Origin: Ophelia neglecta
Lineage: Eukaryota
Direction: 5' to 3'
Assembly: GCA_965285935.1 (NCBI GenBank)
Contig: OZ260661.1
Location: 112,096,001-112,160,000, forward strand
Length of the DNA stretch: 64,000 nucleotides
The notes beneath the pieces were generated by a model. The model made no database searches, was not told the origin of the DNA, and saw nothing but the letters and a program-made list of their open reading frames with translations. The position numbers and the translations under genes are program-made. Shown one piece after another: positions 2,454 to 64,000 of the stretch. The first letter of the stretch is position 1. Every line of letters starts with the position of its first letter.

Positions 2454-2877
2454 TGTAACAACCGGTGGTCTCAGCGGGGTTTGAACTCACTACCCTTGGT
2501 TCTCCAGCCAACAACTCTACCAAGTTTGCCAAAGGGGTAACCCCTCTAGCCAAGCTAGTAGGAGTGTTGTGATCATGCACCAGTGGCCATGACCTGCTCA
2601 TACATCTCTGTTACATTCTCCCCCCTGCTGAGAACCACGTCCCCGTGGTGGTATGGCCACAGGACGGCTGTTGGGTTCGAGACTCTCGGTGAGACAGTCC
2701 CCTACTAGGCTCCATTGTAACAACCGGTGGTCTCAGCGGGGTTTGAACTCACTACCCTTGGTTCTCCAGCCAACAACTCTACCAAGTTTGCCAAAGGCGT
2801 AACCCCTCTAGCCAAGCTAGTAGGAGTGTTGTGATCATGCACCAGTGGCCATGACCTGCTCATACATCTCTGTTACA
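2454..2877 (-). mobile_element. TRIM (non-autonomous LTR retrotransposon) with tRNA-like sequence in its LTRs, Helenus-type
   Basis: Two 162-bp TGTAACA...TGTTACA LTRs (2454-2615 and 2716-2877) differ at 1 position and flank a 100-bp internal region. TATA TSD at 2450-2453 and 2878-2881. On the minus strand a TGG-starting PBS lies 1 nt after the 5' LTR, and PPT AGGGGGGAGAA precedes the 3' LTR. Each LTR has an A box (TGGCAAACTTGG) and a B box (GAGTTCAAACC). Confidence 0.92.
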
Positions 2878-4331
2878 TATAGACCTATAGGCTTCTCTGC
2901 TCATACTTGGGCTAGGCTGCGGCTGCTTCGTACAGACTTGTCATTGCACGTTGCATATGTCCTGGTTCGTCACCATAAAAGCTTGAATGGTTTAACTAAC
3001 CGCCATAGCGGTTCTTTTCTCGTTTGTATGGTCCACAACTTGAAAATCGACAGCTTTATTTGTAATTGTCATATCCATATTTTTTTATTCCTTTTTTTAT
3101 CGTCACTCCAAAGTGAGCATCTTGAAAACGGACTTTACATATGATCATCATGACGTTCTTTTACGATATACCATTAGCATATATTCGCCGCATCTGTGTT
3201 TAACTTGCATTTGACTTAATAACAGTATATTAGTCATTTGAGGCCCCTCTTTCCATCGCCATTGTTCTGATTTCCATTTTTTGTCGTTTTTAACTGTTGA
3301 TTAACTTAGTAGGAGACTTGTCGTAATAAAAACAAAGGAAGAAACATCCAACAGAAAGCATATTTTTTTTAGAAGTTTCTTAAAAGACATTATAGAAAAA
3401 AATTGCAATCAACATTGCAAGATACAAAATTCCAAATAAGTACTTATAAACCTCTAAACTTTACCTGTATTAGAAACAAAAACCTTTTCTATAAGGAGAA
3501 CATGTAAATAATTTATCTTTTTGTCGGCAATTTTTTCAGATTGAAAAATCTATGCCAGTCGGTGTCGTAGTTTATATTCAACAGAATTTGTAACTTTTTC
3601 TAGATTGCTCCTTTTTCCATGGCTTAAAAGTCCAGGGTGAAAAAGAAGGGTATTGTGGTAAATCTGATATATTGTCTGAATACCGATTTCATTATAGAGC
3701 TACATCGTAAGGTCAGAATTGAAAGTTTATTTCAGATAACTAGAATTATGACTCTGCAAATGTGAAAATCAGCGCCACAACCGTCCACGTACAGTGACTT
3801 TACAAACACATTACCCCAAATAGAGTGTGGTGTGTAACCTCATTTAACAGAAATGTGAAAGGATGGTGTGTTAGCGTTGACTAGGCCTCTAACCTCCCAA
3901 CTGATCATTACCAAGCATAGGGTAGCATAGATGCCGTAAATGAAACTCGTTATAAAAGTTGAAATCGTGAAATTCCTTCACACAACTTTCCGCGGACAAT
4001 GATATTGCTTCTCTTTTATGAAAATCAATAGTCATGTGATAAAGTCTTTAATCTTCACTAATGGTTGTGACAGCACTGGAAGCTTCTACAAGCCAAAATC
4101 GCAATCGCTGCCATCATTTCTCGACTCGAAAAGCTCGAAAAAATGCATAAAATTAACAATTCAAGGAACAAGTGGAGATACTTACCTCTAAAACAAAAAT
4201 TGAAGCTTAGAAATTAACTGAACCCACAAGTATATTATAATATTAAAAATAAAAATTCTCCCTAATATATATGTTACGCCTAATTCCTACTTGACTTCAG
4301 CTCGGGGTCTTTATGTTTAGGAGAATTGACG

Positions 4332-4490
4332 GAGAGCGGTAGATTTGGAGTTCGACCTGCACGGATCTATCGCTCCGAGTCAATTGACCGACTTAAAATA
4401 TTTGCATGGTCATATAGTGTGGCTTGAGACAATGAGCAGTAGATTCGAGACAATGAGCAGTAGATTCGTGATTTCTAATCTACTGCTCTC
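4332..4490. repeat. Small imperfect inverted-repeat element (possible MITE) containing a 21-bp tandem duplication
   Basis: gagagcggtagatttgga at 4332 versus ttctaatctactgctctc ending at 4490; gagacaatgagcagtagattc x2 inside. No clear TSD. Confidence 0.35.
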
Positions 4491-4609
4491 TGAATAGGGT
4501 GACGTCAAAAAAATATTTTGAATATCAATATCACTAGATTATAAAATCTAATCCAGATTGAAACATGGGAAACACAGGTCAAGAAATGTTGATGTTATAT
4601 ATTACGTAC

Positions 4610-4725
4610 CTCATATACAGATCTAAGTGATCCATTACATGTAGGAGGATCGAAGACACCAGGATCGCTGACGACTACGTCTACATTCATGAATGAACCT
4701 GTCACGGTTGCTGACAGACCAGTAC
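4610..4725 (-). CDS. EPDR: EPDR coding exon 5 (FMNVDVVVSDPGVFDPPTC)
   Basis: acceptor tttgtcgtttag; ends at donor GTACGT or reads on to TAA at 4595-4597. Confidence 0.85.
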
Positions 4726-45200: not shown

Positions 45201-48200
45201 TGATTTTATACTTTCAAATGTTAATGTTAAACACCCTATCTAAACAGACCACCTCAAACATCAGACCAATATTCTCCAGCCCCTTTGGTGGTCTAAACTC
45301 ACAGGTTTCACTGTATTCTACAAAATTCTTCAAAATAATATGCTAGTGACAGGAGTGTTGACATAAAGTGGAGTACATTATAACAACTGTAGGGCAGTAA
45401 ACCAAATTACTATTCTTATCATTACTTTTCATTGCTGACTTTCCCATTTAAATACTATTTGAAGTTAAAACTTGCTTTGGCAAACTACAAGGCCTGTCAT
45501 GAAGGCCTACCCTTAAAACTTAGGCAAATGAATGACTCACGCATAAAATCACTTGCTATCAATAGTCTCGATGTACACCCTGAATAATGGTACACCTTTT
45601 TTATCCAACAGCTATCAAGAAAGTTCTTTAAACGTTTAGAATTTTAAATTGAATGAAATTTTAATTTGGACAGGTTTCATTGGCCACATTAGGTCAGTGC
45701 CATGTGCCAATGAACTGTATCCATTGCACCACAACATTTTCCCACTGACTTATTTACAACACAGCAGTTCATTATAACGTCTCTTGATATATTCACTTCA
45801 AACATGTACTTTTCAAATGAATACGTCTGCCCAATTGTTATACCAACCTATTCTGTACCTCAATTCAAAAAGCATTACAATGTGGGATCATACATTTTTA
45901 AGGTTAAAATAATCTTGTCCTCTTCACCATGCTACCTGTACATTTTGCAGGAAGTTCTGGTCGTTTATACACACTGGTTGTTTGGTTAATCCCCTACCTA
46001 TTTTGTCACACATCACTTGGCAATTGTTCCATACCTTTTTTTTGACTCTTTGCTCCATTGCTATCTGTTTCATATTAGTGCAGTGTCTCCCGCACATTCC
46101 ATCCTACTATTTTTACCCTAAACATGTACATGTGCTACCAGGAATATATTGCCACGATACATAGTAATAGACCCCACAATAGTTTTGGAGTTGGTATTTA
46201 TTATTCTGTCATTTTGTGTCATGATTATCAGCGCATGTACATGTATTCTTGTGAGTTTCTGTATGTATATATGTTTATCTACTTTGCTTTTCATGCCACA
46301 AATATTATGATTATAGCAGTTTACCTTGGCTATATCATAAAATGACAAAAACTTTTTTCTAGCTTTAATTGTCTAAGTGTATTATAGTTGTAATGCCTAA
46401 GTTTTTCTCTAAAGTAAACTATTTGGATTGAGAAACAAAGTGTTTCTGGTCGATATCCTTATCAAGAAAAAACAAATTCTCCATTTGTATGAAATGGCAA
46501 TTTTTTGCAGCACTGGACATATACCTAGTCTAACTCCACCAGCCTAAATGTATAATCCGCGAACTACCTATCATTTAGTCTGATAACACTGCCTGCAGCC
46601 AAGTGCCCCACTGAAATGGCCGGGAGATGGCGCAGCAAAGCCTAGCGTTTACGGTCAAAGCGAGGCTGTGAACTCTGACCTGCTGTGACCTAGATTGAGC
46701 ATTGCGTTCAGCAACCTTCGGGATTTCCCAGATCAGCTGTTTGATCCAACATGGCAGCTCATGTGTTCTCCGTGTTTATCGTGGTAGAATCAGGTGTTTC
46801 ATTAGCTTGTTATGCCTAGTAAATTTCATCTCACAATCAAAATGGAAGACGCTCTGCATCCTTTTCCGAAGATTGCTGAGGCCGATTCAAGTGCGAGCGT
46901 ACCGACAGCAATGTTGCTTGACACAGATAGCGTGGCCGCGTGTCCAATCACACCGCGCTGGGTGACCCAGTTTAGTGGACTGGCCGCTGATAGGCAGGAC
47001 ACGGATTCTGTGTCTGGAGGGCACTTGGCCAGAGGCAGTTTTACAAGACCCTAAGGCAGTACATCAGTATCTAAAAATACCGCGCGGAGGGGATGTGTGG
47101 CACAAGACTAGACATATACCCATACTTAAAAGTTGTGCAAACTATGAACAAATTTCTATTGAAAAAAGAGGTTCTTTTTTTCTTGTCATTTTATCATTTT
47201 CACCTGACCAGAACCAAGTTTGTAGTTTGTTATGTAACCTAACAGATCTTGTACACACTTCTTTCATTGTAAGAGAATTCCATTGCAGTTTAAAAACTGT
47301 GGCTGCAAAACAGCCCTTTTCAAGGGCAATGAAAAATGATTTGTATTTAATGTAGTCAGCACTTATATTTTATTACATTAAATAAAGGTTGTCTCTTGAA
47401 TAAGATTTTTCCAAACCATTTTGAACACTTTTTCATTTTTGGTGCTTTTTAACTTTATCCCATGTAGAAAAATTGACTTATGTTCACTTTCTTTGTAAAC
47501 ATCGATAAAATCGATAAAATCTTAACTAATGAAGTAACCTAAATAAACCTGTATATAAATGACACAGGCAAATGATTTATAACATGTTTTTTTACATGGC
47601 TTTGTATTTTTTAAAATTATGTTCACTTTTTTACTGCTATCTGGTACATTTGTTTATAAAAAAAAAGTCAAACAGACAATGATAATGTTTTGGAATTAAA
47701 ATCAATGAATTAATATAAAGCGAAAAATCGCTGGCCAGATTTTTAAGTGCCTGTGATTACTAGAAGTAAATCTAAAGACTGGCATATTATCAAGGCTGCC
47801 TCAGATTTTCCAGGAATATTATATTCTTATTTATTTTCTGTTGCAGTGAAGACACCTGAGGAGGACAAGGAAGATGATGAATCTCCCTTGACTTTTCCCA
47901 GCAGCTGGCACAAGCGAATTCTATGGGTCATCTCTTTGCCTCTCACAATTCTTTTCTTGTTTTCTGTTCCTGATTGTCGTAAGCCTGCTTGGAAGAAGTG
48001 GTATATTTTAACATTCTTCATGTCCATTATCTGGATTGGGGCCTGTTCATATTTAATGGTCTGGATGATCACAGTGATCGGTGAGTATAATTGGTTTTCT
48101 AACACAATATAAAATGAACTGAAGAAGAAAAATTTGACCAGTATAAGCTAACTAAAACACCTGGCAAATGTATTCAATGTGGATCCAATAAAACTGCAGC

Positions 48201-51983: not shown

Positions 51984-52223
51984 GCCCCGAAATGTAACCT
52001 GCCCCGAAATGTAACCAATTACATTTAAGGGCTGGTTACATTTTTGGGTGCAGTGGAGGGTGCATATGTAACCAACCCCAAATGTAACCAACAACCCGAA
52101 ACGTAACTAGCCGTCCCTGAATGTAACCAACCCCGAAATATATCCGGTTACATTTCGGGGTTAGTTACATTTAGGGGCAGCACTACTGAATTTCAAAATG
52201 TAGCCTTCCCCGAAATGTAACCA
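51984..52223. repeat. Cluster of ~13 CCCCGAAATGTAACC motifs in both orientations
   Basis: direct and inverted copies visible. Confidence 0.85.
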
Positions 52224-54138
52224 GTTACGAGCTTGATCTCGTGTGGGTTGCAGTTCTCCTCTCAAATTAAACCCAATAGGTATTTGGGGGAACTAAATCT
52301 ATAGTTGCATTTGTTTTAACTCATTAGCAGTAAATTTCACAATGATTTTAAATGAGCTATTCTGCTCATTACAGGGCAAATGGAAATGTGAATCTGCTTA
52401 ACAATAATTAAACAAAGTACGTCAATTGCGGACACATAGGCCTATGATCAGTCTGACTCGCAATAAAAGCGTCACTGGATCACTACACATATTGAAATGA
52501 TTGCACTATCGATTAAGTAGTATACCATTTTCCTCTACAATTTAGAGTGACACTTTACATTCTTCTTTGTTTTTGAATATTTTATGGGTGTCATATTAAG
52601 TCCACCATAGAGAGCGTACAGACTATCCTTGGGCATATTTGAATAATATCGATCTAGTACGTTGACCACAAGCTGGTTTGTTTTGTGATTTGACTCCCAT
52701 GGATCATTCCAAATTTAATCTAACTGTTCGAAGCTTAGCGTGATATCCAATTTGGCGTCTAATGTAATAGCGAATCAGCCTACCATGTTAACGCAGGAAC
52801 TACAGAACCATCTTAGATGCTGCCCGCCCACCGCCACCAACACCACCCCCACCGCCAACCAACGTACACCACCACCAGCCTCCACAACCCCCCCCCCCCC
52901 CCACCTCACTCCTCTCACCCCCCCCCCCCCCCCGCACAGATATTGTAGAGATAGTCAGCACATATAACAGAGCACATACCGCCCCAAAGTTAAATAGTAA
53001 TTTTAATGTCTGACTTGAGTTAGGCCTATAGTTATTGCCGTTTCGGGCGGGGCAGGACGAAAGGTTACAGGAGTTTAAAAATGTTATTAAATAATTCTGA
53101 TAAGTAGGAATTAATATAGAGTTTTGAATATTATAATCAATTGTTAAATTAGGAAACATGTTGCTAAGCCAAATATGAATAATAGAATTTTTGGTCATTA
53201 CGTACAGTGTGGGATTCCCTGCAAGGTCGACTCAATTATATACAATGTAGCATAACAATTAATGGGCATAACTGTAAATAAGAAATTAACAAAAGATCGT
53301 AAACAAATGTAGTGCCAACGGGTGGGCAGGGAGGGAAAGAAAGATCACGTATCTTAGTGAAATGTAGAATTAAAAAACAAGGGTCCGAAAGGTAAGTGAA
53401 TTGGAATAGGTGTCGATCGAAGGTGAGATTCCGGAGAGAGATACGAGACTTCCTTCCTGGTCGAAGTCAAGATGAGAAGGATCGTTTAATTCGAAAAGTT
53501 CCTAGAACTGTCTTTCTGTGTGATCTGTTGCGCGATTGGCTGAGCGTGAGCACGTGATGCTGATGTCTTTGTTTTGAGGCTATTGGGTGTAGTTGGCTAT
53601 CGAGGCTATTCCCGGCGCCCGCCGTGAAGTGCAATCAGCCGCGAAACATGAAATGAGGAGATTGGTTTAGAACATACAAACTATATGTGTATATGGTTTC
53701 CTTGCGAAAAACACGGCTGTGTAACCACAACCGTCACATTTTTCTTTGGGAAAGCAATAACACAAGGCACACAGGAGTTTAAAAATTTTATTAAATAATT
53801 CTGATAATTAGGAATTAATATAGAGTTTTGAATATTATAATCAATTGTTAAATTAGGAAACATGTTGCTAAGCCAAATATGAATAATAGAATTTTTGGTC
53901 ATTACAGTCACAGAAATATGATTACATATGCATGGCTAGGTTAAAGTTAAGTATAATTATTAACGTATGTACAATAAAGACTAACGAAGCGACTTGAACA
54001 TATATACAGAGTAGACATCAAATATGTACAATGTGGGATGCCCTGCAACAGTGCAAGGTCGCCATGAGCGAAGGGTGCGGGCGTTGGCAGCACACTGAGC
54101 GGGATCCCACAAATGTAGAGCGGATAAAGGGTAGGTGT

Positions 54139-54296
54139 TGGGAGCAGCATGCGCTGGTCTTCCCGGGAGTGAAAAACCCTTAAATTTGGGAGCAGCATGC
54201 GCTGGTCTTCCCTAGGGTGAACCCTGACTGGGGGCAGCATACGCTGGTCTTCCCTAGGGTGAACCCTGACTGGGGGCAGCATACGCTGGTCTCCCC
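54139..54296. repeat. 42-bp tandem repeat (~3.6 copies) downstream of the YR ORF
   Basis: tggg(a/g)gcagcat(a/g)cgctggtcttccctagggtgaaccctgac; units start at 54139, 54187, 54229, 54271. Confidence 0.9.
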
Positions 54297-54299
54297 GAA

Positions 54300-55199
54300 T
54301 TAAGCTAGCTGTGGAGCGGGGCGCTCTAGTGTGGGAGAGGCACGTGTGCGTCTGATGTAAGATTTGAAGGCATCGCTGTTCCACCGGCCGACAGATTTTA
54401 TTGTGGCTTCAGTCTCATTTTGTAGGGACATTTGCGTGGCCCTACCTATGCGGAACCCATGGGTGTTGTATTGAGCGGGATTTAGTCCAGACATTGACAT
54501 ACATTGTTTTAGGAAAGTGGCGAAGGTGTTTCTCGTTATGGGCACTTTTTGTTGGTTTATAAACAGGGCACCGTCTTGTTGGCCTTTTTTGAGGAGGTAG
54601 TTACGAAGTGCATTATACGGGCAGTATAGCTTTTCGGTTCTGGCTTGTAACAAAACTTTTGCTGTGCGATTCCTTGAGTGTTTAAAAGACTGAAAAGTTA
54701 TTAGGAATTCTTGGTTACTTTGCTGAACCTGGTTAAATTGTAACATGTGTTGGGGAGTTGGGGTCAAGACATCTTCGCAAGCTCTCATGCAGGCGTAATA
54801 CATTATTAGGAAAAGTGCTTTATACATGGTTCTATAATAAGGTGATATTGTGCAGAAAGGGATGGAATCAATCAGTCTTTCCAATATTGACTTTGTGATT
54901 GGGAGCTGATGGTTATCATAGTCACACTTTTCCAGAGAGCTGATTCCGTCTATTGCTTTTCGGACAATTGCACTATCTGTGGGGTCTGGCAACTTCTTAA
55001 TGGTGTGAACGAACGAGATAGCTGACATGTATGTTCGTATAGTTGACTGACGAAGGCCCTGCTGAAAGAGGTGGGTAACAAATAAAGCTACAGTATATTC
55101 GGACACAGGGAGGGTGAGTAGCTGTCGTAATTCGTGGGTAATGAAAGAAAGGAGGGTTTTCCATTGCCTATTGTAGATACGACTTGTGCTTGTAGCCAT
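54300..55199 (-). CDS. Tyrosine recombinase (phage-integrase family) of the retrotransposon
   Basis: STIRTYMSAISFVH N-terminal domain; catalytic residues in MRACE (R), HGFRIG (HxxR), GRW and SYIR (Y); uninterrupted 299 aa. Confidence 0.92.
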   Translation of the reverse strand: MATSTSRIYNRQWKTLLSFITHELRQLLTLPVSEYTVALFVTHLFQQGLRQSTIRTYMSAISFVHTIKKLPDPTDSAIVRKAIDGISSLEKCDYDNHQLPITKSILERLIDSIPFCTISPYYRTMYKALFLIMYYACMRACEDVLTPTPQHMLQFNQVQQSNQEFLITFQSFKHSRNRTAKVLLQARTEKLYCPYNALRNYLLKKGQQDGALFINQQKVPITRNTFATFLKQCMSMSGLNPAQYNTHGFRIGRATQMSLQNETEATIKSVGRWNSDAFKSYIRRTRASPTLERPAPQLA

Positions 55200-55219
55200 G
55201 GATGCGTTTAAAAGCGTAT

Positions 55220-56760
55220 TTAAACCAAGCTGTAGTTGCGAGGAAGGATATCCTCGGGGATCGACACGGGGGATAACTTCATCCTATATTGTAGAAGTGT
55301 GGCTTTGTCCGCCTGGAATCGAGAAATTTTGTCGCATAAAACATTGTCTATACCTGGTATATGTACAGGGTTCAAAGTTATGTTATTTAAGAGGAGGGTG
55401 AGAACGAGTGGGCGCAGTATGGCCATGATACGTGGGCTTTTTGAGCTTTGCTTTTTAAGCACTTCGACTACGGCTTGATTGTCACAGTGGAATGTTATGT
55501 GCGAGTGACTTAGTTGATCAGCAAATGTCATAATGATGGCAAGTATGGGATAAATTTCCAAGACCGCTATGTTAAGTGTTTGCCAGGAGGTGGGCCATTG
55601 TCAATGTATCCAATTGTTTTTGTAGGTTGCTCCAAAGCCTAATTTGGAAGAATCAGAAAAGAGATGTATCGTGGTTGAATCTAAGTTGGAGGGCTTTGTT
55701 ATAAAGGACTTTCCATTGTAGTTTTGTAGGAAACTGTTCCAAGTTTGAAGGTCTTGTTTTGCCCCTCGGCTGAGGCGAAGAAAGTAAAATGGTTTCGAAA
55801 GGCCAATGGTGAGATCGTGCAATCGCCTTAAAAAGGGTTTTCCTGAGGTGACTATGCAAGTTGAAAATTGCAATTTGCCTATCAATGATTTGAGCTCTCT
55901 CAGTGTTAATTTATTGCGTGCCAATGTATCTTCTATGTCTTGTGTATATCTTGCTAGTTTATCTGGTGGAAGCGAAGCAGTCATGTTTATTGAGTCCAGG
56001 TGTATTCCCATGAATACTATTGCAGTGGAGGGTCCTAGTGTTTTGTGGGGGGCAATGGGGACCCCAATCTCGTTACATAATTCTAGGAATATGTTCAGGT
56101 ATTCATGGCATGTCGAGAGTCAGGGGGACACGAAAAAAATTCAATTCAAAAATTTTACAAGAGGAAGCACAACCCATTGGCAGACATTTTTCATAATAGT
56201 ACTCTCCCTTAAATTGGAACCCCATAAGGTGATATTGTTTAGGGTTTATAGGTATGAGCCGAAAAGCGTCTGCAATGTCACTTTTTGCCATGAATGCCCC
56301 CGGTGAACACTGTTGAATGAGGGATATTGCATCTTTAATACTTTCATACTGAACCGTTGAAAAATCTCTAGGTATGTTGGTATTGACCGAGGTTTTGTCA
56401 TATGGGAAAGACAAATTGTGCAGGAGCCTAAATGTGCTTGGAGATTGTTTTTCTCTAAGCGCTAATGGGGAACATTTGAAATTAGGGAAGGGTGCAATTT
56501 TGAAAGGGCCAGAGATTCTGCCAAGGGCTATCTCTTGTTCTAGTTTTTCCTGTACTATTTCAGGGTTTTTTTAATACAGATTGAGAGTTTTTGAATGTAA
56601 TGGAGTTTCAGGGCCAGAAAATTAATATCAAATCCATATTTGAAACCATGCATAAGGTATTTTTCATGTTCATAATTAATTAGATATTTGGTCAGGGCGT
56701 TTATTTGTACCGGGGTTGGGAGATTTAAGTGGTCTCGATTTGGGGGCGATTTGAGGCTGC
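55220..56760 (-). pseudogene. Reverse transcriptase-RNase H (DIRS-type), disrupted
   Basis: PTPVQINAL...GFKYGF; GRISGPF...FRLLHNLS...MAKSDIADAFRLIP...LPMGCASSCKIFE; RNase H motifs LFSDSS, EIYPI, FHCDNQAVV, DKISR. Frameshifts, a TGA at 55601-55603, and no YxDD region. Confidence 0.9.
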
Positions 56761-57959
56761 TGAGGGCGGGTGTGTCCGAAAGTGCTACATTGAGAGTACA
56801 TGGGATGGCGTTTTGAGCACCTAGGACATTCGTGCTTGTAGGCACACGGGTTATTGTGGCACCGTACGCCCCTTTGGTGGAAGGTGAAACAGTATCCAGA
56901 TGGGACTCTTTGATTCTCTTGGTAAGGCCGAAAAGAATTTGTTGGTCGAAAGGATTGTTGGAGGGGAAAATATGCGTCCAGCTGTAGATCTTTCTCGCAC
57001 AGTTGACCAAGAGTATGGCACTTCTGCGTGTTCTCTCTGAGAGCGGAACTCATGGTCATAAAATCGCCATTCGGCTCCGCGGCGCATCAATTGTTTAATG
57101 TGATGGCAGTATGTAAGGAGATCACTAAGGTGAGAGGAATATTTTTGTACATATATTGCCACATATATGTCCATTGCAGAGCTCCATTCATTTTCTGTGA
57201 GCTGCTTTTTCCTACGGGGGTTGAGGTTTAGTTGGGGGGTAGCACTAGGGTCAGAGAATTGCAGGGAGTAGGATCTGCGAGTTCAATGTATTTATGGGCC
57301 CAAATGTTTTGTTTTGTCTGCATATCCACGCATGCACCTAATGGGAGTCCGGATGATGTAGTTGGACGGTGGGTGTTGACAACTATGGGAACGTTAAGAA
57401 ACTCACCGTTAGCTGCCTGTTGGTTTTGATAGTTGTCAGCCAGCTGTGTTTGTTGGACGACAGCTGGCTGGGGCTCTTGTATGAAGTCTGTCTGTGATAC
57501 GGGAAGGTCTGCTGTCTGGTAATTGTCAGGTTGCGGAGTTTGCGGGGTAAAGGTGTCCTGCTGCTGATGGGTGTCTGGTTTTTGGTGGGTTTGAGTTAGC
57601 ACAGCTATCAGTGTCTCCATCTGCTTGTTAAGCAGTTGCTGGCCAGCGATGATACTTTGCTGCATCTGCGCCATGGTGTGTAGGGAAATGTCTGTTTGAT
57701 TTGCTGAAGTGCTCGGCTGAGGTTCGGTCTGTATTGTCATGGAAGGTGTGTCAAACGAGTCCACCAACCGTGCTGGCATGTTTCTCTTTCTTAGGGGCTG
57801 CTGTCTTTGGGTTGGAGGAGCGGGCTTTGATATTGGTTTGGTGCGGGTTCTTCTGAGGGGAGATTTTGTTGCCGAAGGCATCACGGATCTCCTTCGTGCC
57901 TTCAGCTTCATTGAGAGGGATCCGGAGGATCGGGAAGATTTTTCTGATACTTTAGGCAT
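56676..57959 (-). pseudogene. Gag-like ORF1 with C-terminal Cys/His zinc finger, frameshifted
   Basis: Low-complexity Q/P/T-rich N-terminus; 'KQNIWAHKYIEL'; 'WRFYDHEFR'; 'YCFTFHQRGVRCHNNPCAYKHECPRCSKRHP', spread over three frames. Confidence 0.8.
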
Positions 57960-58150
57960 GGCTGTAAAAGAAATGAGCATTAGAAAATAGAACAAAGGTA
58001 AATTGCAGCAAAGCTGCAATGACTGAAACATGTGGGATTAGTGTTTTACTTATGCATCGAGACACACTATGCTCTGAATCAGGTAACGTGTGATACACAA
58101 GGTTGTGCTAGATAATAAAGGGGATAATATTAAGGTATGTATGGGAGAAT

Positions 58151-58752
58151 GGGGCCGAGGCCGGTCCCCGAGATAATATTGGGGTTTGTAGTGGGAGGAT
58201 GGGGCCGAGGCCGGTCCCCAATCATATGAACGAGGTGCTTACGCCGAGGCCGGCAATGTTTATAAAGTTGCACAAATTAGTGCATAGTTATAATGTACAA
58301 AATAGCAAATGCAGTTTGGGACCGAAGCCGGTCCCCGAAAGCTATAAATTGAATTTGAATATTCTTGGGAGTGGCTTACGGTGATGTAGCCAGGGAGGCA
58401 GAAGCCAGTCGAAACAACAAATTTTTTCTGAAAGCAGTGTGGGGCCGAAGCCGGTCCCCACTGAAGTAGAAACTGAATTTTTAAATTTCATGGGCGTTAC
58501 TTGCGTTTAAGCAGCTTGAGAGGCAGATGGCGGTCGAAATATGGCAACAAAATCTTTTTATTCACAAGAATGTTAGCAAATCCAGCGTGGGGCCGAAGCC
58601 GGTCCCCAATGATGTAAAATTTGAACGTCGGCCCTTTTTGTGGGCAGGGAAAACTAGCATGAATAGGAGGCCGAGGCCGGACTCTCGTGGATGAGAAGCA
58701 TGCAATTTTGTCATGTTAATTGGCAAGATCGGAGGCCGAGGCCGGTCTCTCC
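58151..58752. repeat. Array of 8 GC-rich hairpin motifs GGGGCCGA(G/A)GCCGGTCCCC in the element's 5' leader
   Basis: copies at 58151, 58201, 58243 (partial), 58318, 58441, 58589, 58667, 58732. Confidence 0.9.
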
Positions 58753-59654
58753 TGGACAAAGAAAGGTTGTGTGAAGGATGAAGGGGGGGAGGGGGACTGT
58801 TGATAAGGAGGGTGGCGGGCTGTCCCCCACGGCGCATTGTCAGTGGGGTAGGCCTGCTAGGATTGGGAGTGAAATTCATTGTGGGGGAAAAGCGTGGTGT
58901 GCCTGCACAGTCTTAAATGTAATTTCCCTTAGAGATTTTTTATATAATGTCCTGCCTATTTCTGAATTTGGGTGAATGCCATCCAAACTATATGTGTATA
59001 TGGTTTCCTTGCGAAAAACACGGCTGTGTAACCACAACCGTCACAAATTTTATAACGTTATAGGCTAGGCCTACTCTATATTACGCGATATGAATTAATT
59101 AGCACTTGTTCTGAGTTTCAACCCCGGGAAAACTCACAGACTTTCATACGTAAGTCAGTCGAGTCGGGAATAGACTATATGTATAAAGAACGTCTTGTGA
59201 AGTGCTGTATAAAGTGCTGTATGGCGGCCATTAAACTAGGTGTGGCAAGCAAGTTTAGTTCAATAGCGTTATTACATACATATAAGAGCTCCTTTCCGAC
59301 GCAATAATTTAAAAAATCGAATAACTCTTTCCCTTTTTACCGTGAGCAATGCTTTCTTGGATAATTTATCTAAAAAAAACCACGGATATGTTGCAATAGA
59401 ATATAGAAAAACAATTAAACAAAACTTATGTTATCAAATAAGAAAAGTAACAAGTTATGCATGAAGCACACACGAACACCTTGCTGACGTCCATGCTTCT
59501 TTACTCTGTACAACACTTCATATATATTTTTGCCAAGAATTATGTATTTTATGTGTAAAGAAACAGAATAAATTACATCAATCAATCAAACACCTATACC
59601 CGTTACAAAGTCATGCAGGCGCACACACGCTGCCACGGGCGAGAGATGTTTGTC

Positions 59655-63097: not shown

Positions 63098-64000
63098 CTA
63101 ATTCTGCATTACGTAGTCTTTATACCTTTCAGGCATAGATCTTTGTCTCCTAGGCCTCACAAATATTGACGGAGATTGAGGTGGGACAGTCAGCAACGGA
63201 GGCACAATTTCTGGCTGGTTTCCCAGTGGAACCCTGGGCGTCGGCGGTGATGTCAGCTCTGGTCGTGCCTGTTTCTGAGGTGAACTGTTGTCCTTAACAG
63301 TGTCATCCAGAAATATATCTGGTTCAGCCTGTGATGTAGGCACTGTTTCTCTCCGCGGTGCCTGCTTAAAGAACGACGAATTCCTTGTAAGCGTCCTACC
63401 ACTGTGCTGGAATTCTGCCGTTATCATACTACCTTTCTTCTTTTGTATTTTCAGTGGTTGGTGGTTGTATGGTAAACTGAGAGAGTTTTCTTTTTCCTGT
63501 TTAACCACCACTGTGTCCCCAATTTGAAAATCCGATTCTCGAGCTCTCCTTTTCAAATCGGCATACTTCTTCATTTTTTCTTTACCCATTGCATCAGAAT
63601 TGAATATATCTGTGCTAGTTTTCTTGGGCAAAACAACCTCAGGCAGTTGAGTTTTCATAATTCTCCCTGTAAGGGCTGTAAATGGGGCAACCTTGGTAAT
63701 AGTATGTGGAGTAGCCCTATATTGTCTCAAAAATCTGTTCAGCTCCTGGCGCCACGGTTTGCCTTCCACTCGTGCCAGTTTAAGTACTTTCCCAAGAGAT
63801 CTCATAAATTGCTCAACCTCGCCGTTAGCTGACGGCCACAACGGGGTCACTTTTCTGTGTCTGAATCCCAAATGTTTAGCAAATAAAGCAAAATCATTCC
63901 CGTTGTACGGGGGTCCATTATCTGATTTCACTATGGACGGAACCCCTTGTCTTGCGAATATTGAATCCAACTTAGGAATTGTAGCTTTTGCACTTGTCGA
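63098..64000 (-). CDS. Gypsy pol C-terminus: integrase core (D..35..E) and GPY/F-like region; 5' truncated by the window
   Basis: GVPSIVKSDNGPPY...TPLWPSANGEVE; YRATPH; FQIGDTVVVK; C-terminal RPRRQRSMPERYKDYV. Confidence 0.92.
   Translation of the reverse strand, partial: STSAKATIPKLDSIFARQGVPSIVKSDNGPPYNGNDFALFAKHLGFRHRKVTPLWPSANGEVEQFMRSLGKVLKLARVEGKPWRQELNRFLRQYRATPHTITKVAPFTALTGRIMKTQLPEVVLPKKTSTDIFNSDAMGKEKMKKYADLKRRARESDFQIGDTVVVKQEKENSLSLPYNHQPLKIQKKKGSMITAEFQHSGRTLTRNSSFFKQAPRRETVPTSQAEPDIFLDDTVKDNSSPQKQARPELTSPPTPRVPLGNQPEIVPPLLTVPPQSPSIFVRPRRQRSMPERYKDYVMQN

Follow-up and report, generated by a model that had tools for sequence, protein, structure and literature searches.

The Psi packaging signal of retroviruses lies downstream of the major splice donor and is present in unspliced genome RNA, not in spliced mRNA, and the gypsy Su(Hw) insulator is an array of DNA sites without covarying stems. 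Export of unspliced retrotransposon RNA is described for RTE, the MusD MTE, and C. elegans Cer1 in PMC12786077, where it depends on a complex fold present once or on a specialised protein. Dictyostelium DIRS-1, a YR retrotransposon, has inverted repeats with an ICR; the primer is stated as unknown in PMC7192593, and the accessible portion of that paper describes neither an internal array nor a natural intron. The split-repeat layout of Ngaro elements, a superfamily of YR retrotransposons in the order DIRS, is set out in PMC8547959 and PMC9210276; in the latter, the hydrolase-bearing Ngaro elements of Xenopus (DIRS-53_XT and DIRS-54_XT) carry their SGNH hydrolase ORF after YR, and its function in Ngaro elements is called unproven. 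The words splic-, tandem, and hairpin are absent from the main text of PMC9210276. In the literature on Ngaro and DIRS elements, founding Ngaro papers and Repbase aside, we found no internal hairpin array and no natural intron, in agreement with the first-pass annotation of the present locus, which knew of no such array in these elements.

The DNA analysed here, referred to as the window, is the whole stretch of 64,000 nucleotides from Ophelia neglecta. The array that it contains is carried by a Ngaro YR retrotransposon, which lies on the minus strand from about 53067 to 59045. In common with the two Xenopus elements it has the arrangement A1-ORFs-B1 A2 B2 with a gag-like ORF, RT/RH, YR, and an extra SGNH hydrolase ORF; unlike the Xenopus type as given in PMC9210276, it has the hydrolase as its first ORF, before gag and in a predicted intron, and not after YR. 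In the sense direction of the element, the features of the window copy are the following.

58980 to 59045, minus strand: A1 remnant of 66 bp, the rest of A1 being deleted (by comparison with intact copies)
58876 to 58983, minus strand: tail of the SGNH/GDSL hydrolase ORF, from the DGIHP block to the stop
58825 to 58848, minus strand: hairpin present once, downstream of the hydrolase stop, one of its pairs being broken in the window copy
58728 to 58753, minus strand: array hairpin 1, GGAG...CTCC type (core scan, covariance model)
58663 to 58688, minus strand: array hairpin 2, GGAG...CTCC type, partly decayed (core scan, covariance model)
58585 to 58610, minus strand: array hairpin 3, TGGGG-A-CCG GCTT CGG CCCCA type (core scan, folding, covariance model)
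58437 to 58462, minus strand: array hairpin 4, G-run type (core scan, folding, covariance model)
58314 to 58339, minus strand: array hairpin 5, G-run type with one private substitution (copy comparison, covariance model)
58236 to 58261, minus strand: array hairpin 6, TG-CCG GCCT CGG-CA type without bulge (core scan, covariance model)
58197 to 58222, minus strand: array hairpin 7, G-run type, in a 50-bp tandem with hairpin 8 (covariance model)
58147 to 58172, minus strand: array hairpin 8, G-run type (covariance model)
57962 to 57995, minus strand: predicted 3' splice site, with a pyrimidine tract and a CAG separated from the gag ATG by 2 nt
56679 to 57959, minus strand: gag-like ORF (ATG at 57959), split among three frames
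55223 to 56570, minus strand: RT/RNase H region, likewise split among three frames (PF00078, PF13456)
54300 to 55283, minus strand: tyrosine recombinase frame (PF00589)
54139 to 54296, minus strand: 42-bp tandem repeat (3.6 copies) directly after YR
53067 to 54048, minus strand: B1 (about 53739 to 54048), A2 (53337 to 53739), a spacer, and a truncated B2 (53067 to 53201)

The window copy retains only remnants of the split direct repeats A and B, whereas seven intact copies elsewhere have the full A1-[ORFs]-B1 A2 B2 structure, with A repeats of 402–417 bp and B repeats of 292–319 bp that are 99–100% identical. Their order is A1, a donor-like site, the SGNH hydrolase, the single hairpin, the array, an acceptor-like site, gag, RT/RH, YR, and B1 A2 B2. 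The first-pass annotation had placed the array in the leader of the element; as the intact copies have a hydrolase ORF upstream of it, the array lies between hydrolase and gag instead. In these copies the hydrolase is an SGNH/GDSL protein of 207 aa, which in one of them (L031) matched PF13472 at 33.3 bits against a cut-off of 32.9, and the S, D, and H motif columns were invariant in all 14 aligned proteins. The tyrosine recombinase frame of the window matched PF00589 at 34.2 bits (cut-off 27.1), whereas the matches to PF00078 and PF13456, obtained on broken pieces, fell below the curated cut-offs. The gag-like ORF gave no Pfam match and is named by position. No match to the Dam family (the DIRS-type methyltransferase) was found among seven ORF pieces of the element, and no terminal inverted repeats were found in the window element or the intact copies. 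The window copy is dead. Its gag and pol are split between several frames, and a deletion at a 4-nt TTTG microhomology has taken out about 930 bp, and with them most of A1, the donor-like site, and most of the hydrolase ORF. Removal of a spliced intron was ruled out as the source of this deletion by the microhomology and the lack of an AG. The copies of the element fall into two subfamilies of six and four members, which differ at 103 of 309 4-fold sites.

Several other features of these elements and of the surrounding DNA were observed. The 42-bp tandem repeat after YR has hairpin potential, and a repeat occurs at this place in many families. Directly after A2 a C-rich tract (CCCWCCC-like; about 53320 to 53337 in the window) was present in all 10 families inspected, and a role for it in priming or strand transfer is possible. 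Three loci (L018, L021, and L022) are solo A-spacer-B remnants, as expected from recombination between A1 and A2. At 51984 to 52254 the window contains a cluster of direct and inverted 17–63-bp repeats (CCCCGAAATGTAACC), probably the end of a small DNA transposon; at 63098 to 64000, minus strand, the window ends within an integrase (rve) ORF, which belongs to a separate LTR retrotransposon. A frame at 47747 to 48112 on the plus strand resembles an exon of a cation-exchanger (SLC24-like) host gene, in or beside which the element may lie.

A scan of the window for the array core (plus-strand CCGA[G/A]GCCGG with at most one mismatch; CCGGCYTCGG, 10 nt, in the element sense) found eight copies spanning 58147 to 58753, with starts at 58155, 58205, 58244, 58322, 58445, 58593, 58671, and 58736, all in the same orientation, and a covariance model of the array found exactly the same eight. 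The number of copies given in the first-pass annotation was thus correct, while its consensus was exact in only four of the eight, which represent three hairpin types: a G-run type with a bulged A, a GGAG/CTCC type with bulges, and a TG/CA type without a bulge. A 14-nt pattern with up to two mismatches matched eight times in the window, where 0.06 matches were expected by chance; these were seven of the eight cores and a degenerate copy at 58397, the core at 58244 being missed. In the 762-Mb genome the exact 14-mer occurred 61 times and its reversed control not at all. All but three of these matches (58 of 61) fell inside 10 elements belonging to a single Ngaro retrotransposon family, which carry it one to eight times each in both subfamilies, and the remaining three were isolated and outside element copies. 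The spacers are 20–129 bp long with a GC content of 25–42%, and only one of 21 spacer pairs, 58337–58440 and 58460–58588, is alike, the very pair reported earlier. The proposal built on it, that the array arose partly by tandem duplication, was borne out, and the array is kept in the second subfamily, with 15 motif copies in rearranged spacers. When the array DNA was compared with the genome, it matched element copies only. A coding repeat was ruled out by spacings that are not multiples of 3, and a CRISPR-like repeat-spacer array by spacers that are uneven (20–129 bp), two of them being duplicates. An Rfam 15 scan of 52800 to 59300 gave no match at gathering score and one chance match (E 1.7).

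The claim that the motif is far better conserved than its spacers held among paralogous copies, where core identity was 0.92–0.96 as compared with 0.24–0.43 in flanks more than 5 nt away. Within subfamily 1, a slower rate of change in the motif was not significant (15 of 152 variable columns in the motif vs 72 of 470 in the spacers, p 0.11); between subfamilies, survival of the 14-mer unchanged has a probability of 0.003 at the 4-fold rate. The inner three pairs of the hairpin are nearly invariant, so that the core, which is also palindromic, shows sequence conservation and not covariation, whereas the outer pairs change on both sides. When left and right flanks were matched with their own partners, none of 20,000 permutations was as good, and in the bulged register 79% of cells were paired, a value reached in none of 500 shuffles, although a control slid by +1 came close (0.264 vs 0.277). 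The covariation looked for is therefore seen in the outer pairs, and it rests on three hairpin types and few events. Two individual changes had been read as structure-preserving. The one at 58318, G.T to A-T, is private to the window copy (one of the nine copies holding the position) and so does not speak for selection. Both subfamilies have the 58732-type change. Loop variants UUCG, CUCG, and CACG match the YNMG pattern, but a cYNMGg (UUCG-type) tetraloop was ruled out by an ensemble probability of about 0.0001, as against 0.998 for the CCG/CGG stem.

Two further features, both absent from the first-pass annotation, as was the upstream hydrolase ORF, were found around the array: an enclosing pair of splice-site-like sequences and another hairpin, whose pairs covary more strongly. 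For the former we collected 62 loci of YR and hydrolase relatives, 50 of which contain the hydrolase start, and chose 19 family representatives by eye. Donor-like sites (GT or GC) were scored as matches out of 9 to the U1 consensus. Within 110 nt before the hydrolase ATG, a site scoring at least 7 was present in 15 of the 19 representatives and one scoring at least 6 in all 19; shuffled windows reached 7 in 6.7% of cases, the summed score was 135 against a shuffled maximum of 110, and the mean was 7.1 as compared with 5.8 on the reverse strand. In two elements (L031 and L036) this was the sole site scoring at least 8 in the whole sense strand, and in two others (L094 and L098) the site upstream of the hydrolase is a GC (GCAAGT), not a GT. 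Of 18 representatives, 15 have an acceptor-like YAG with a pyrimidine tract no more than 15 nt upstream of the gag ATG; such a site precedes 197 of 1520 other sense ATGs (13%) and 5 of 19 hydrolase ATGs. As the thresholds were set after the sequences had been seen and the representatives are related, these values describe strong patterns and are not clean p-values. In L031 the donor-like site lies 35 nt before the hydrolase ATG (sense 1185/1186), and 2 nt separate the acceptor-like site (sense 2780/2781) from the gag ATG; the predicted intron, enclosing hydrolase and array, is 1595 nt there and 1716 nt in L036. Because the pair is conserved across families, hydrolase and array very probably form one predicted intron. 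No intron-less copies were found among 10 gag starts of the array family, from which two chance matches to the gag-start pattern outside elements (L135 and L138) had been excluded, or among the matches listed for three sister families (best 40 candidates scored each). Acceptor-like sites between A2 and B2 were seen in 2 of 10 families and are not general. Contigs of one sample of unspecified kind, listed as three runs, showed no joint at the predicted splice sites and were left out of the evidence.

The second hairpin has a 6-bp stem, a bulged U, and a conserved top made up of a GAC/GUC stem and the loop ARYGC. It is found mostly 8–70 nt after the hydrolase stop in families whose YR identity is about 50% or higher (L031, L036, L072, L074, L077, L079, L081, and others). 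In 12 aligned copies 90% of cells paired, all six lower pairs changed on both sides, and two one-sided changes gave G-U pairs on the sense strand. Its score of 0.60 was well above that of slid controls (0.04–0.19) and was reached in none of 500 shuffles. Model R1, built on this hairpin, gave no match in the more distant families and also missed L116, which has a shortened stem. Nothing else in the hydrolase-gag interval points as clearly to selected single-stranded structure as this hairpin, which gives stronger structural evidence than the array itself.

The array motif is family-specific. Among 36 sources its covariance model matched the eight window copies only and nothing in 35 loci of other families. 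The second subfamily keeps the motif; no third subfamily with the array was found in 10 further 3'-end loci or nine A-repeat loci. A single-protein scan for relatives in other organisms gave one locus among 117 candidates (L144), which we judged to be a chance match in unrelated DNA. In 9 of 18 families the hydrolase-gag interval contained a repeated 10-mer above the best of 12 shuffles, and in the other nine it contained none; the repeats of the families other than the array family were not enriched in hairpins (z −2.3 to +1.5 vs shuffles). The intergenic regions of L093, L099, and L103 have an interspersed GGTCGGCTCC motif without a clear hairpin, which resembles the array core by transitions (a weak, post hoc likeness), and in L100 the region from 4140 to 4620 has four to five repeats of about 80–170 nt, apparently long hairpins with variable tops.

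Deletion derivatives were also present. In a sister family (L074), five copies on five chromosomes (L120 and L145–L148, at C5:37.49M, C8:32.04M, C1:115.64M, C2:66.98M, and C7:60.94M) have a common deletion junction, at which the acceptor and most of gag are lost. Of these, the four retrieved in full have a YR deletion in common as well and keep the donor and the single hairpin, and the hydrolase deletions of this lineage stop 8–60 nt before that hairpin. Four of the five contain 11–17 motif copies, as compared with 4–5 in full elements; L120 has five. All three replicated deletion lineages, two of which belong to two more families, keep their own array (chance probability 0.20), and four single deletion copies with ends intact or partly intact (L112, L113, L153, and L158) are without it. 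The derivatives include L151, a sister-family mini-element of 2.1 kb in which part of the array is retained; a replicated derivative (L109, L126, and two further copies) that has lost about 2 kb from gag into RT and keeps hydrolase, array, and YR; and L152 and four more copies, which have lost RT/RH and have a 1.9-kb insert in gag (L152 sense 2812–4715). This insert looks like a LINE RT fragment and, being present in a replicated derivative, has travelled with the element.

We propose, with a probability of roughly 0.45, that on the sense RNA the array would act as a multi-copy tag by which Gag singles out the unspliced genome RNA to be packaged and reverse-transcribed. One transcript from A1 would be either left unspliced, as hydrolase mRNA and genome, or spliced to give the gag-pol mRNA; splicing would remove about 1.6–1.7 kb holding hydrolase and array. 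Since the A and B repeats would remain in both RNAs, the spliced one would become a competing template, and the element would need a mark on the unspliced RNA only; a mark within the intron would set the full genome RNA apart from the spliced RNA. As the array lies inside the predicted intron, the unspliced genome RNA alone would carry it, and the mark would be the repeated, family-specific hairpin, read most likely by the element's own Gag. The splice prediction is the stronger part of this proposal and the role of the array the weaker part. Like retroviral Psi, the array would be a structured cis element restricted to unspliced RNA, here predicted from sequence; unlike Psi, it is a repeated, family-specific hairpin, and the roles of the two RNAs would be the reverse of those for retroviral gag and env, the spliced RNA giving rise to Gag-Pol and the unspliced RNA to the accessory enzyme.

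The same splice sites and the same location of the array would also fit hairpins that bind a host factor or the SGNH protein, and not Gag, and so bring about intron retention or export. The G-runs of the array presumably resemble hnRNP H sites. Export elements for unspliced retrotransposon RNA do exist (PMC12786077), and the array would solve the same problem as RTE, MTE, and Cer1, that of bringing intron-containing RNA to the cytoplasm, a likeness of description, the Rfam scan being blank. We nevertheless consider this explanation unlikely. The motif differs from family to family, which is a better fit to a co-evolving element protein than to one host factor, and a weak RYCGGCYYC core, noticed post hoc, is common to only 3 of 16 other families. 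Moreover, the gag-less lineage has no acceptor and yet has an expanded array, so that splice control cannot be the reason there.

In double-stranded DNA, the array could offer CpG-rich sites (CCG-N4-CGG) to a host transcription or insulator protein and so serve as internal promoter or enhancer of gag-pol. An invariant, palindromic inner core, copies all in one orientation, and AT-richer, freely varying spacers are what such an array would show, and the architecture, a short motif repeated about 8–15 times among AT-rich variable spacers in the 5' region of a retrotransposon, is like that of the gypsy Su(Hw) array. Unlike the units of that array, however, those found here have stems that covary, and binding to duplex DNA would leave unexplained both the three different outer stems, each of which still pairs, and the adjoining covarying single hairpin. 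The strongest donor-like site, moreover, is found ahead of the hydrolase and not in the array. We regard this explanation too as improbable.

The first-pass annotation had assigned the structure to antisense RNA or cDNA, where the hairpins might be landing sites for Gag or YR, because G.T pairs would form on that strand only and be A.C mismatches on the sense strand. Nothing in the analysis spoke for small-RNA generation, another role suggested there. DIRS-1 does accumulate linear single-stranded antisense cDNA (PMC7192593), and the antisense strand folds equally well or slightly better: z was −3.5 as compared with −2.7 for the sense strand, and mean MFE over 43 distinct windows was −10.7 vs −10.2, the sense strand being better in 17 of the 43. 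Hairpin probabilities in full context averaged 0.50 and 0.67 for the sense and 0.35 and 0.80 for the antisense strand. The G.T argument, however, disappears in the bulged register, where leaving one A as a bulge lets the sense strand pair completely, and the A-T change cited for it is confined to one copy. When partners were exchanged among the 11 windows of G-run type, own partners had an advantage on the sense strand (237 of 20,000) and not on the antisense strand (12,476 of 20,000), a weak hint in favour of the sense strand. The array also lies a long way from the ends of the element, the expected site of YR recombination. What stands of the original idea is a maintained, hairpin-forming motif in a YR retrotransposon, and a role on the antisense strand is very unlikely.

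A neutral minisatellite, in which RT jumps duplicate and shuffle units and template switching perfects palindromes without selection, has little chance of being the explanation: tandem duplications are evident, ordinary tandem repeats occur at this place in many families, motif protection within subfamily 1 is not significant, and the growth of the array in copies without gag may follow from a relaxed limit on size, but the cores are 92–96% identical beside flanks that are near random, and the exact 14-mer is present in both subfamilies despite its low survival probability.

The proposal of a Gag-read tag can be extended to a joint reading, which we think doubtful, in which these elements would form a large Ngaro clade with an inverted retroviral programme: the intron would consist of the esterase gene and the array, Gag-Pol would be made from spliced RNA, the array would be a packaging code matched to the Gag of each family, and gag-less parasites would amplify it and thereby outcompete their helper. 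If this reading is true, it would provide the first located RNA-selection signal and the first natural splicing programme for YR retrotransposons. The predicted donor-acceptor pair with exact coordinates, the 26-nt repeated hairpin, and the covarying single hairpin are testable handles on it, and the questions that they touch are how the ORFs of these elements are expressed, how the genome RNA is chosen, and what use YR retrotransposons make of an SGNH hydrolase.
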